Of a stretch of DNA of 11,044 nt, positions 4,938 through 11,044 are shown one piece after another. The DNA lies in assembly GCA_900546875.1 (NCBI GenBank), contig URET01000038.1, positions 1-11,044 on the forward strand, given 5' to 3'. The stretch comes from an uncultured Eubacteriales bacterium (lineage in GTDB: Bacteria; Bacillota; Clostridia; Christensenellales; CAG-314). The position numbers and the translations under genes are program-made. The notes under the pieces are model-generated. The model ran no database searches. It was not told where the DNA came from and was given only the letters and a program-made list of their open reading frames with translations. Within the stretch, counting starts at the first letter, position 1; the number at the start of each line of letters is the position of its first letter.

Positions 4938-5260
4938 ATACTCCGGAGAATATGATCGGATTTTTAGAGTTTCAAAGCGGTGCGATGTCGCTTTTTTAAG
5001 TGCAGCGCCCTTATCCGGATTTCAAATCAGGTTTTTTCTGCCAGTATCGGCTTATTATTTAATTAAAGCTCATACCGTAATTCAAGCTGATATCGCTAAA
5101 AAGTATTGAAATATAAAACACGATCGCCCGCGCATCGGAAACCCTGCCTTTTCAGAACGGTTTTTTTCACGGAAACAGGTCAGATGTATTGCATCAAGGC
5201 ATTTGTACTCATCAGGCAAGGCTGCAGGCAGTCGAAGGGAAATATTTTCGTGAAAAAAAT

Positions 5261-5400
5261 CGCCGGTAAAAAACGACGTAAATTCTATCCCGAAGAAATC
5301 TGCGGGTAAAAAACGACGTAAATGCTATCCCGAAGAAATCTGCGGGTAAAAAACGACGTAAATGCTATCCCGAAAATATCCGCCTGTAAAACCTGCGGCT
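5261..5400. repeat. Perfect head-to-tail tandem repeat, 3 x 40 bp (5265-5304, 5305-5344, 5345-5384) plus a degenerate partial fourth copy. Unit: ggtaaaaaacgacgtaaat(g/t)ctatcccgaagaaatctgcg.
   Basis: Copies 1 and 2 differ at one base, and copy 3 diverges only in its last ~10 nt. The period is exactly 40 bp, which is not a multiple of 3. The repeat lies in an ~830-bp ORF-free region between the convergent flotillin and glycosylase-like genes. Confidence 0.9.
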
Positions 5401-5697: not shown

Positions 5698-6750
5698 TTA
5701 TTCATCAAAACTTATTGATGTAATGTCATTCCACAGCGTGCCTGCAAAATCGGCAACGATGTCTTTTTCTTGTTGCGTTACTGTTTTGAACATCGTAACC
5801 GACAATTTTTTATTCTTCTTTTTCCATTTGCCGACCACTTCGCCATCAATCATCAATGCAGGCATTACAATCCCTGCGAGATTGAATATCGCCCTCAAAT
5901 TCTCTTGGCTTAAAAACAAGCTTTCCTTTTTTTCGTGAGCTAAAAGAAGTTGGTCAAATCCTGCAAGGAACAGACATTTTGGAATCCCTTGATCGTAAGT
6001 CTGATTGTTGTCGATATAAAAATAGGTTTTACCTTCACATTCTGCTGTTGATACAGGCAGTTTGGAAAGCCAATCCTTAACCTGTGCGGCTGTTGCATGA
6101 AAATAGTACATGGCATCGTGAATGGTGGAAGGTCCCATGTGGGTAAAGTATCGACGAGCCATTTCAAGGTTTGCTTCTTGCTCCGGAATGGGAGTAAACG
6201 CAGGAGATAAGCAGAAAGCTTTCTTTTCCTGGACAACATAGTTTATAAATCCACGTTCGCACATTTCACGAACGCCGCCACCCCATTGGTCGAACATACT
6301 GCTTTCTTCGGGTTCGGTCATACCGTTTTGTCTGCAGACATCCTTTAATTCTTCTCTTGTCAGCTCGGAGTATTTAAGAGCATCTAAGATCACATTAGCA
6401 AAATAAGCCTGTCGCTCCGGTGTAAGTGCCCATTTATCACGCTGATTCCAAAACGTATATCCACGCCAATCGTTACGCAAATAATCTTGCCCATTATTGC
6501 AATGAATGAATAATGGCAGATCATCTTCGGCAAACACATGAACTGTTCCTCTGACTGTCCAGTTTTTTACAAGCCCATTTTTGACAGTATCCTTATTATA
6601 ATCTGAACACCTTATTTTCAGCGAGTGCATAGCGTTTACCATGAATTGCGCTTGAACACCACAAAGATCATGGAGGACGGTCATTTTATCTGTCGGTTGG
6701 AGCAAATGTTGATTTGCCATCTGACGAATTTTTATTTCTTCTATGGTCAT
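5698..6750 (-). CDS. Winged-helix HTH_42/DUF1006 protein of the AlkZ/YcaQ DNA-glycosylase family, AlkZ-like subtype with a Q-x-Q motif (350 aa)
   Basis: Length, overall composition and multiple Trp-containing motifs resemble the YcaQ/AlkZ 'winged helix DNA-binding domain-containing protein' family (recalled, not searched). The N-terminal region LHDLCGVQAQF places Q33-A34-Q35 at the position of the catalytic (H/Q)-phi-Q motif of AlkZ-like glycosylases. This is the last gene of the minus-strand operon, 15 nt after the PurN stop. Confidence 0.55.
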   Translation of the reverse strand: MTIEEIKIRQMANQHLLQPTDKMTVLHDLCGVQAQFMVNAMHSLKIRCSDYNKDTVKNGLVKNWTVRGTVHVFAEDDLPLFIHCNNGQDYLRNDWRGYTFWNQRDKWALTPERQAYFANVILDALKYSELTREELKDVCRQNGMTEPEESSMFDQWGGGVREMCERGFINYVVQEKKAFCLSPAFTPIPEQEANLEMARRYFTHMGPSTIHDAMYYFHATAAQVKDWLSKLPVSTAECEGKTYFYIDNNQTYDQGIPKCLFLAGFDQLLLAHEKKESLFLSQENLRAIFNLAGIVMPALMIDGEVVGKWKKKNKKLSVTMFKTVTQQEKDIVADFAGTLWNDITSISFDE

Positions 6751-6765
6751 CGTGTACCTACTCGT

Positions 6766-7360
6766 TCACCCTAAAACAATCTTTCCGTTGATAATGTCTG
6801 CAATCACTTCGACCAAAAAGGTATGCTCCCTTTCAAGAACTCTTGCAGCCAATATCTCCGGTGTATCGTTCTCCAATACCGGCACTGTAGTCTGAGCAAC
6901 GATCTCGCCGCTATCGTATTCGGCATTTACACGGTGAATCGTTACTCCGGTTTCTTTTTCTTTTGCTTCAATTACGGCAGTATGTACGTTCATCCCATAC
7001 ATTCCTTTGCCGCCGAACTTGGGCAGCAGAGCAGGATGGATGTTAAAGATTCTGTTGTTATACTTTTCCAAAACCGTGATATGTAACATTCTCATGTACC
7101 CAGCCAAGAAAATCATATCAACCTCGTGGGTAGCCAACACATCAAGGATTTCTTTAGCGAGAGCTTCTTCGCTTCCGAATTTTTTTTGCGCTCAAATGAT
7201 ATGCCGAAATATTCTCATTGTTGGCTCTCTGTAAAGCCATAGAATCAGCGTTATTGCTTATAACAGCCACAACCGTAGCATTGATCTTATTGCTTTTACA
7301 TCCGTCGATAATTGCTTGTAAATCACTACCTCCATGAGAGACAAAAACAGCTATATTCAT
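6766..7360 (-). pseudogene. purN: Phosphoribosylglycinamide formyltransferase (PurN-type, formyl_trans_N), interrupted by a +1 frameshift in a T8/A8 homopolymer (7180-7187). The track splits it into ORFs 7154-7366 and 6766-7140. Either a pseudogene or a sequencing indel.
   Basis: The N-terminal fragment MNIAVFVSHGGSDLQAIIDGCKSNKINATVVAVISNNADSMALQRANNENISAYHLSAKK matches the PurN N-terminus, and the downstream fragment ...LAGYMRMLHITVLEKYNNRIFNIHPALLPKFGG...VHTAVIEAKEKETGVTIHRVNAEYDSGEIVAQTTVPVLENDTPEILAARVLEREH carries the NxHP-LLP and Asp catalytic motifs. On the coding strand, removing one A from 'gcaAAAAAAAAttcgg' fuses the two into ...AYHLSAKKFGSEEALAKEILDVLATHEVDMIFLAGYMRML. The likely start is the second ATG (7358-7360), 8 nt after GGAGG. 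Confidence 0.8.
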
Positions 7361-7379
7361 ATTCATATCCTCCGTTGCT

Positions 7380-8069
7380 TTATAGTTCGGTCAAAACACC
7401 ACCGTTGAATCCGTATATGTTTTCTTTTTTGAATCCGTATAAAGACCAAGGCAAACTGATATGCGGTTCAAAAGTAAACGCTTCGACAGCGGACAGTTTT
7501 TCCGTGTTTCCTTTTTCGATGTAGATACGGTGTCTTTTATTCTTAACTATGGAATGACCCAAGTTTCCAAGAAAATCAAGGTTGACATACCCACGAGCTT
7601 TGATCTGATCGTTTATGTAGTAGAACAGCTCCTCAAAAGTTGTGTTCTCATTCACGAAACCAAGCATAGCTTCGTGCAGATAGGCTTCCATTTTGAGACC
7701 GTTTCGCCATTCATCATTCTGTATTTGCTCTATGTCTTTGACGATTTTTCCGTTTTCTACGATCAGCGTTCTGGCGTAGTCGCCCCAAATGCAGTTGTTT
7801 TGCGGGCTTAAATCTATTGTGATAATATCGTTTGACTCAATTATGTGGTCATCTGTTTTATACTCACGACCGGATACCGATACAGCGGTCTTTTCACCGG
7901 CGAAAACAAAAGCACCCACATCCCAATACCAAAAGGAAACCGCACCATGGGAAAGCATATATTCCTCACACAGTTGGCGAAGCTCAACAAGCGTCATGCC
8001 GGGCACAATAACTGTTGAAGCATATTCAATGGTGGCTCGGTTCAAATTTTGCATTTCGTGAATAGTCAT
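7380..8069 (-). CDS. M24-family (pita-bread fold, methionine-aminopeptidase-like) metallopeptidase, ~229 aa
   Basis: Alignable by eye to the MetAP core: PGMTLVELRQLCEEYMLSHGA corresponds to PGVSTGELDRICNDYIV. The two metal Asp are 11 residues apart in DIITIDLSPQNNCIWGDYARTL, followed by GHSIV (His), FTFEPHI (Glu) and a C-terminal Glu. The start is taken as ATG 8067-8069, preceded by RBS GGAG. Its ATG overlaps the TGA of the upstream Cys-rich frame (TGATG). Confidence 0.6.
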   Translation of the reverse strand: MTIHEMQNLNRATIEYASTVIVPGMTLVELRQLCEEYMLSHGAVSFWYWDVGAFVFAGEKTAVSVSGREYKTDDHIIESNDIITIDLSPQNNCIWGDYARTLIVENGKIVKDIEQIQNDEWRNGLKMEAYLHEAMLGFVNENTTFEELFYYINDQIKARGYVNLDFLGNLGHSIVKNKRHRIYIEKGNTEKLSAVEAFTFEPHISLPWSLYGFKKENIYGFNGGVLTEL

Positions 8070-8404
8070 CACTTATTCTCCAGTTGGTTGCACTTGTTTA
8101 CATACTTTGCTTGGTAATCCGAAATTTCTTTGCAAGGGTATTCCGAGCATTTAGCGCAAGCATCTGCACTTCGCTCAATGCAACACTTTTTGAATGGACA
8201 CTCTTTGCACAATTCAAATACGTTTTTTGATCTGCCACCGTCGCAGCAGGATTTTTCAAGAGGAATGTCAAGACCAAAGCTCTCTTTATAAAAACTCTGA
8301 GTCTGTCTGCGCAGGTCATCATTATTGGTTTGCGTTGCAATATAGGTAACACACTTTGAACAATCATGACCACAGTAACACGGCTTCCTGCCCGGTGATA
8401 GGGT
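8069..8404 (-). CDS. Cys-rich small protein frame (DUF3795-like: CYCGHDCSKC ... CKECPFKKCC ... CAKCSEYPC) with no canonical start codon; a possible pseudogene or mis-sequenced gene. It is in a different frame from the track's ORF 8098-8373.
   Basis: The stop-to-stop open frame (111 codons) translates to TLSPGRKPCYCGHDCSKCVTYIATQTNNDDLRRQTQSFYKESFGLDIPLEKSCCDGGRSKNVFELCKECPFKKCCIERSADACAKCSEYPCKEISDYQAKYVNKCNQLENK*. Its TGA (8069-8071) overlaps the ATG of the M24 gene, the composition is protein-like and the Cys spacing is conserved-looking, but there is no ATG/GTG anywhere in the frame (one in-frame TTG, without an RBS). A TAA lies 8 codons before the first Cys. Confidence 0.35.
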   Translation of the reverse strand, partial: TLSPGRKPCYCGHDCSKCVTYIATQTNNDDLRRQTQSFYKESFGLDIPLEKSCCDGGRSKNVFELCKECPFKKCCIERSADACAKCSEYPCKEISDYQAKYVNKCNQLENK

Positions 8405-8663
8405 TTATTTTGTTTTCCGGAAGATAATCAAACTCTGTAGATCATTTCTCAGCTTTCGATACTTAATCCGGTATATATCTCGTATATATCTCGCCGTTTT
8501 CACTTTCAATTGCACATACCATATGATGTGCATGTATAAAAGGAGAAACATCCTGAGGAGCATACTGTTCTTTTGCTTTGTAACAGAGTTTTTCCCGAAT
8601 ATCCGTATAACTTTCGTTTTCGGTTTTTATAGTTTTTGTCCATGACCGGCAGACGGAAAGCGT

Positions 8664-10549: not shown

Positions 10550-10744
10550 CTTCCGGAAGGGCGCCCTCACGCTTTCCTGCAGGGTTTTCGGCTTTTTTTC
10601 AGGATACTAAAAGACTTAAAACTTACTTACGGAAAACCACCGGAAAATCTGCCCGCTTTCATTGGGGAACCGAAAGCGTCTGCAGACGTTTCTTGAGCGG
10701 AAACAGTGCCGTCAGGAAGAGGAAACTGTTTTCCGTGCTTCAAA

Positions 10745-11044
10745 CACGTGCCTTGTCTTCCCGGGGCCGCAAACGTGTCTCGCTTTTCCGGGCTTCGTAA
10801 GCGTGCCTTGTCTTCCCGGCTTCGTAAGCGTGTCTCGCTTTTCCGGGCTTCGTAGCGTGCCTTGTCTTCCCGGGCTCCGCAAGCGTGTCTCGTTTTCCCG
10901 GGCTTCGCAAACGTGCCTCGCTTTTCCGGGCTTCGTAAACGTGTTTCGCTTTTTCGGGCTCCGTAAACGTGTCTCGCTTTCCCGAATTACGTAGGCAGGT
11001 CTCGTTTTCCCGGGCTTCGCAAACGTGTTTCGCTTTTCCGGGCT
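10745..11044. repeat. Tandem array of at least 11 units of a 27-28-bp repeat (consensus ~cgtgtctcgcttttccgggcttcgtaag, alternating with a variant cgtgccttgtcttcccggcttcgtaag), running off the right edge of the window
   Basis: The 'cgtg' landmark recurs at 10747, 10774, 10802, 10829, 10856, 10884, 10912, 10940, 10968, (10996 variant) and 11024, giving a period of 27-28 bp. Most units contain the hairpin AAGCG-tgtct-CGCTT followed by TT(T)TCC. There are no unique spacers, so this is not CRISPR. Confidence 0.9.

Follow-up and report, generated by a model that had tools for sequence, protein, structure and literature searches.

The DNA considered here (the window) is the whole 11,044-nt stretch of contig URET01000038.1, which derives from an uncultured Eubacteriales bacterium. 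Its minus strand carries, at 5698..6750, an intact gene for a DNA glycosylase of the HTH_42 (AlkZ-like) superfamily. By sequence and by fold, the encoded protein is nearer to AlkZ, the azinomycin B crosslink glycosylase of Streptomyces sahachiroi (5UUJ), than to the YcaQ and AlkX enzymes, and all lines of comparison agree on this. We consider it probable (roughly 0.75) that the protein is an active, monofunctional glycosylase of the AlkZ branch, encoded by a stand-alone accessory gene for repair or resistance.

The open reading frame (ORF) has an ATG start and 350 codons, resulting in a protein of 350 aa that starts MTIEEIKIRQMANQHLLQPTDKMTVLHDLCGVQAQFMVNAMH; the region 6640-6750 covers codons 1-37. 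Because the homologues checked share the opening MTxEE(I/L)K and a near-constant length (nearly all are 348-351 aa), the start codon can be regarded as reliable. A Pfam search assigns the protein to PF06224 (‘DNA glycosylase AlkZ-like’, formerly HTH_42), with an E-value of 2.7e-29 and 103.3 bits, compared to a cut-off of 25.9. The match spans residues 28-325 and profile positions 3-312 of 329. NCBIfam contains no model matching the glycosylase.

The catalytic motif block, L29-C-G-V-Q33-A-Q35-F36, is encoded at 6643..6666 on the minus strand, with codons for Q33 at 6652-6654, A34 at 6649-6651 and Q35 at 6646-6648. A first-pass annotation of the DNA had read QAQ at residues 33-35 and had taken it for a catalytic motif of the AlkZ type (Q-φ-Q) rather than the YcaQ type (Q-φ-D). 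Translation of the gene confirms these residues, and alignment to AlkZ and YcaQ places them in register with the catalytic motif. A phmmer search against all PDB sequences returned a single relative, AlkZ (E 8.6e-17), in which CGVQAQ aligns on CGVQAQ; the counterparts of Q33 and Q35 in AlkZ are Q37 and Q39. In a MAFFT alignment of YcaQ (from the E. coli K-12 record), T. fusca AlkX (PDB 9ZD6), AlkZ and 83 family members, Q33 and Q35 share columns with Q56/D58 of AlkX and Q45/D47 of YcaQ. Q35 therefore stands in the column that holds the aspartate of the Q-I-D motif in YcaQ and AlkX, which makes the motif here one of the Q-φ-Q type. In YcaQ, alanine substitutions have identified these motif positions as catalytic (PMC7367128), and the QxD residues of A. 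baumannii AlkX are reported to be essential (PMC13303869). Q-φ-Q is likewise catalytic in AlkZ and in LldU5, the latter needing both glutamines (PMC8934636). Since the D47N variant of YcaQ retains full activity (PMC7367128), glutamine versus aspartate at this position is best read as a marker of lineage and not as a switch in chemistry or function.

The motif is also strongly conserved. An alignment of 80 sequences, reaching down to 18% identity, contains only six invariant columns: Q33, Q35, R67, Y201, D266 and W309. W64, G68, T69, H71 and F265 are near-invariant. Q-x-Q is present in 119 of 120 close homologues and in 60 of the 62 full-length representatives of 50%-identity clusters, where x is A, S, C or T. 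The invariance of Q33 and Q35 and the near-universal presence of Q-x-Q among homologues argue that QAQ is not a chance tripeptide.

Besides the motif, several characters in the alignment are in the AlkZ state. There is no 4-residue insertion after the motif. The wing of the first winged helix (WH1), K62-N-W-T-V-R67-G-T-V-H71 at 6538..6567 on the minus strand, follows the AlkZ-type pattern W-x-x-R-G-T-x-H in a four-way alignment, reading WTVRGTVH where YcaQ-like proteins have EYWAHEA. Where the C-terminal beta domain begins, G264-F-D266-Q-L-L-L (5941..5961, minus strand) corresponds to the GFDQxLL of AlkZ, whereas the YcaQ type reads SPFDxxVW. The beta-hairpin region A292-G-I-V-M-P...D-G-E-V-V-G-K-W309 (5824..5877, minus strand) matches the beta11/12 element of AlkZ; in the alignment this hairpin is short, without the 5-residue insertion on which the DNA-binding loop of YcaQ and AlkX carries its conserved Tyr. 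The hallmarks of YcaQ-like proteins are thus missing (the Q-φ-D motif, the EYWAHEA wing and the Tyr-tipped loop, which is 5 residues shorter here); of these, the wing and the loop tipped by a conserved Tyr have been described for AlkX (PMC13303869). Overall identity is 21-23% to AlkZ, compared to 12-15% to YcaQ and AlkX, and BLASTP to E. coli YcaQ gave no significant match. Searching with a profile built from the window's family recovered AlkZ at E 4e-22, whereas AlkX (9ZD6) stayed unmatched even at E<=10. In a neighbour-joining tree, the YcaQ-like pair splits off in 200 of 200 bootstraps. The motif here (Q-A-Q-F) does not match that of the AZL2 clade, H-φ-(S/T)-(D/E). The assignment as ‘AlkZ-type’ is well supported; it is distinct from nesting within the published AlkZ-like (AZL) clade, which was defined on 897 Streptomyces sequences (PMC9040887).

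The predicted fold points in the same direction. An AlphaFold model built with 49 close homologues was discarded because its predicted local distance difference test score (pLDDT) stayed under 50 across residues 1-73, where the motif lies. With the 80-sequence alignment (to 18% identity), the pLDDT rose to 96.6, with a predicted template modelling score (pTM) of 0.92. In this model, helices and strands come in the order expected of three winged helices with a beta domain after them. The three tandem winged helices that the first-pass annotation had presupposed are hence present in the predicted structure, together with the C-terminal beta domain. A Foldseek search of the PDB gave strong matches only to AlkZ (E 1.8e-20, template modelling (TM) scores 0.77/0.73) and to the AlkZ-like C-terminal domain of Lhr.

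How does the protein compare to characterized members of the superfamily? AlkZ is actinobacterial, whereas the protein here is clostridial and has no adjoining biosynthetic cluster. In addition, the alpha-F and alpha-I regions of AlkZ, its presumed lesion readers, have no conserved counterpart here. Several Streptomyces self-resistance glycosylases belong to the same superfamily and carry their motif at the same position, a likeness that we draw from their descriptions only: LldU5 and TxnU2 have the Q-φ-Q type, while TxnU4, LldU1 and HedH4 have H-φ-Q. Unlike the gene here, all five sit in clusters and are specific for cognate intercalating adducts. E. coli YcaQ and the AlkX proteins of A. baumannii and T. 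fusca (9ZD6) are generalist crosslink glycosylases that combine Q-I-D, the 4-residue insertion after it, the EYWAHEA wing and the long Tyr loop; none of BLASTP, phmmer or profile search matches the protein here to YcaQ or AlkX. Finally, the AlkZ-like C-terminal domain of Lhr (PDB 7LHL) is fused to a helicase and is reported to be a uracil-DNA glycosylase (PMC10953399), whereas the protein here stands alone with a single-domain architecture.

From these relatives we infer a catalytic activity, a substrate class and a biological role, carrying over the mechanism of AlkZ, YcaQ and AlkX (PMC7367128, PMC8934636, PMC13303869). Arranged in a C shape, the three winged helices and the C-terminal beta domain would bind duplex DNA on the concave side, which the winged helices line. 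The beta-domain hairpin would lie in the minor groove, and Q33 and Q35 would sit beside the lesion nucleotide. There, the two carboxamides may position a water molecule and stabilize the positive charge developing on the sugar, so that the N-glycosidic bond would be hydrolysed without base flipping. Likely substrates would be cationic N7-alkylguanine (as a monoadduct or as one arm of a crosslink), bulky adducts or interstrand crosslinks. The predicted product is an abasic site, which would be handed over to base excision repair, including an AP endonuclease.

The family is large and widely distributed. At E<=0.001, relatives fall into 1842 90%-clusters, 120 of which are at least 67% identical to the protein here, and into 1826 50%-clusters; within the family, identity drops to 25-30%. 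Among gut and rumen Clostridia, at least 101 GTDB species genomes or loci contain a relative. Counts of related loci given below rest on the 80 of these that were retained (L001-L080). All but one of the 80 come from metagenome-assembled genomes (MAGs), labelled Lachnospiraceae, Oscillospiraceae, Ruminococcaceae, Clostridia and the like, and the host guts include those of human, rabbit, goat, deer and chicken. Distant members are found in Thermotogota and Armatimonadota, one of them named ‘AlkZ family DNA glycosylase’ by NCBI. The first-pass annotation had considered an AlkZ-like enzyme unusual in such a context, an expectation that does not hold: Q-x-Q is the rule throughout this family, gut Clostridia included, and an AlkZ-type gene in the window is therefore no surprise. 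Among 4,650 Pfam members, the aspartate itself is present in only ~55% (Bradley et al. 2020, PMC7367128). The functional rule set out in the same annotation, by which AlkZ-like enzymes provide genotoxin self-resistance and YcaQ-like (YQL) enzymes general repair, held up only in part. It correctly assigns the motif type; as a guide to function, it was derived from Streptomyces alone, where just 68 AZL genes lie inside clusters (PMC9040887), and it is weakened further by the active D47N variant.

The gene is under strong purifying selection: the ratio of non-synonymous to synonymous substitution rates (dN/dS) is 0.06-0.09 against nine of the ten orthologues compared. The tenth, L002, gives 0.25, a value obtained from a nearly identical sequence with very few substitutions.

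This selection acts on a gene without fixed neighbours. On the minus strand of the window, the order is a CitMHS-type transporter, a GNAT protein, a 590-nt gap, an M24-fold protein, purN and the glycosylase; the plus strand carries PepF, an NfeD-like protein and flotillin. None of these neighbours stands beside the gene in any of the 80 related loci, the sole exception being an M24 homologue ~5 kb off in L042. Two censuses of the 80 loci covered 297 neighbour ORFs. Among the 147 ORFs immediately beside the gene there are 116 Pfam families, headed by NUDIX (10), GNAT (5) and GH113 (5); a random sample of 150, taken from the 252 ORFs in second or third place, yielded 170. Polyketide synthase (PKS) and non-ribosomal peptide synthetase (NRPS) families are absent from the 25 most frequent families in both censuses. 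At least 22 contigs, which come from independent samples, encode the exact protein. On the longest of them (135.8 kb), no biosynthetic genes lie within ±10 kb of the gene. The 21 kb around the gene hold transporters, an SDR protein, GNATs, a peptidase-fold gene, a broken purN, flotillin/NfeD, PepF and GDH. The gene is thus part of no conserved operon and is very probably no producer's self-resistance gene.

The immediate upstream region is itself a variable, partly decayed stretch. Directly upstream lies a purN-like formyltransferase gene (6766..7366, minus strand), a neighbour that is not part of the glycosylase function and that is recognizable by two Formyl_trans_N half-matches. A ±1 frameshift at an A8/T8 homopolymer (7180-7187, eight T on the plus strand) splits it into ORFs of 70 and 124 aa. 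Four independent metagenome assemblies (L082-L085) show the identical split, which therefore reflects a real pseudogene or a slippage-prone site and cannot be put down to an error in a single assembly. Further upstream follows the gene for the M24 peptidase-fold protein (7380..8072, minus strand; Pfam PF00557). Together, the M24 gene and the broken purN make up a 1.3-kb segment (~6753-8062) shared by the window and L082-L085. L086, whose glycosylase protein and outer flanks are the same, lacks this segment (L086:2560-2800). At the breakpoints there is a 9-bp microhomology, GATGAC(T/C)AT, that comes from the first codons of the M24 and glycosylase genes. Next comes a DUF3795 remnant (8069..8404, minus strand) of 111 open codons. 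It lacks a start codon near the 5′ end, and its TGA overlaps the start of M24; its counterpart in L002 matches DUF3795. In L001, L002 and L086 this remnant directly precedes the glycosylase gene, as seen by blastn and alignment. The ‘operon with detox-type genes’ of the first-pass annotation dissolves on these grounds, with no conserved neighbours in 80 loci, M24 and purN missing from L086, and purN frameshifted.

Several observations made together suggest that the gene has moved between genomes. In L002 (CAAEOA010000001.1, 70-8680), the gene and the DUF3795 tail are 98% identical in DNA to those of the window, while the flanks are otherwise unrelated. These flanks contain a MobA/VirD2 relaxase, an AAA_25/DnaB-like gene, APH-type kinases, two DUF3795 genes and a Zn-phospholipase-C-like gene, a setting that resembles a mobilisable element; a related relaxase/AAA_25 pair occurs in L076. 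Close relatives of the glycosylase (91-98%) are found in MAGs labelled as several families. PepF (587-2371) behaves differently: apart from its own cluster, its best relative among 5.8 billion clusters is 78% identical, and the rest are mostly at 60-65% and at most 65%. The G+C content of the block 5698-8663 is 40-42%, compared to 43-51% in five flanking genes. Taking the L002 flanks, the identity contrast between PepF and the glycosylase and the G+C block together, we consider it probable that the gene arrived by horizontal transfer between gut Clostridia. Among the plasmids of PLSDB there are four distant matches only (21-25% identity), none of them clostridial.

Other readings of the gene need to be weighed against that of an accessory AlkZ-branch glycosylase. 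The same class of enzyme might be a generalist akin to YcaQ and AlkX that constitutively repairs simple N7-alkylguanines and crosslinks as a housekeeping task, with Q-x-Q as no more than a lineage marker. We regard this as possible, if rather doubtful. It would suit a gene that lies outside any biosynthetic cluster, is widespread in commensal Clostridia and is strongly conserved among close relatives, and the full activity of YcaQ D47N leaves the chemistry undecided between Q and D (PMC7367128). However, YcaQ-like genes have near-invariant neighbourhoods and high sequence conservation (PMC9040887), whereas the neighbourhood here is fully variable and the family divergent (25-30% identity); the DNA-binding loop with the conserved Tyr is absent, and the gene looks accessory and mobile. 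A more specific proposal is that the clostridial Q-x-Q clade provides orphan resistance to a genotoxin that alkylates or crosslinks DNA and that comes from other gut microbes or from the diet, a proposal that strikes us as fairly unlikely. Its further elements we hold with the same reserve: that non-producing gut commensals exchange the gene horizontally, sometimes on mobilisable elements, is a speculative suggestion, and so, to a like degree, is the idea that its frequent position beside small resistance-like genes (GNAT, APH-type and P-loop kinases, NUDIX) belongs to such a role. That the protein is a non-catalytic, winged-helix DNA-binding protein, such as a regulator or a nucleoid-associated protein, would be in line with its fold and with the many database records that read ‘winged helix DNA-binding domain-containing protein’; we consider this very improbable. 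Least credible of all is a producer's self-resistance gene within a genotoxin biosynthetic cluster, like AlkZ, HedH4 and TxnU/LldU. The AlkZ-type branch is enriched in such clusters in Streptomyces (PMC9040887), but there are no biosynthetic core enzymes in the 21 kb around the gene and neither PKS nor NRPS among the frequent families of the neighbour ORFs. We therefore rejected it.

Several points count against the reading of an active, accessory AlkZ-branch glycosylase that we prefer. In the neighbour-joining tree, the window's family stands apart from the AlkZ group in 98 of 200 bootstraps only, and the AZL side of that tree consists of close relatives of AlkZ alone. The proposed activity and substrate are extrapolated from 21-23%-identical proteins outside the clostridial clade. 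The case for transfer depends in part on the taxonomic labels of MAGs, some of them given to short contigs. Lastly, no promoter or damage-inducible operator was identified around the gene: promoter and terminator scans there stayed at background level, and a search for an SOS/Cheo-box (CGAACNNNNGTTCG, <=2 mismatches) gave a single match, inside PepF, which is below chance.

A few further observations concern the neighbourhood of the gene. In the window, the 590-nt gap (8069-8663, minus strand) holds gene remnants, including, in a frame other than that of DUF3795 and as judged by eye, a cytidine/blasticidin-deaminase-like fragment, ...APQDVSPFIHAHHMVCAIESENGEIYT.... A riboswitch or leader at 8073-8663 was considered and rejected: Rfam gave only a sub-threshold osmY elsewhere in the window, and the region consists of gene remnants. 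Among the related loci, NUDIX hydrolases are the top immediate neighbour (10 of 147), with three more among the second neighbours. This adjacency might conceivably hint at a link to nucleotide-pool sanitation, or it may just mirror accessory-gene islands. Eight of the 80 loci (L003, L004, L029, L039, L042, L048, L057 and L070) encode, directly upstream of the glycosylase, a conserved 223-aa P-loop protein (WGRGKTT) with no Pfam or NCBIfam match. In L004, its gene (L004:5340-6011) overlaps the start codon of the glycosylase by 11 nt. This protein could be a small-molecule or nucleotide kinase that acts as a partner of the glycosylase in a sub-clade.

Judged from the relatives of PepF, the host lineage is poorly sampled. 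The best named relatives (60-62%) belong to Clostridia/Clostridiales MAGs, Ca. Fimimonas and ‘Corallococcus sp. CAG:1435’. NCBI taxonomy lists Ca. Fimimonas under Myxococcaceae, probably a database misplacement, since the other named relatives are Clostridia; the CAG-1435/Fimimonas genomes are probably gut Clostridia mislabelled in NCBI.

The window also contains three non-coding tandem repeats. A 134-bp unit is repeated 1.9 times at 100% identity at the left end (1-255), a 40-bp unit 3.5 times downstream of the glycosylase gene (5254-5391), and a 28/55-bp unit ~10 times at the right end (10729-11044). The last of these is not CRISPR-like, because its units are arranged head-to-tail without spacers.

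What does the gene mean for the family? A correct and useful annotation is that of a glycosylase of the AlkZ branch, not of the YcaQ branch. Its wider value lies in the clade to which it belongs: a clostridial Q-x-Q clade that is abundant in gut and rumen, strongly selected, without a fixed neighbourhood and with signs of horizontal movement. None of the papers searched deals with this clade, and the assayed members in the papers cited here are all from Actinobacteria or Proteobacteria. A clostridial member could tell whether the rule derived from Streptomyces, in which AlkZ-like stands for specific toxin resistance and YcaQ-like for general repair, holds elsewhere. If the suggestion of orphan resistance were true, resistance-guided mining with this gene could reveal unrecognised exposure to genotoxins in the gut.
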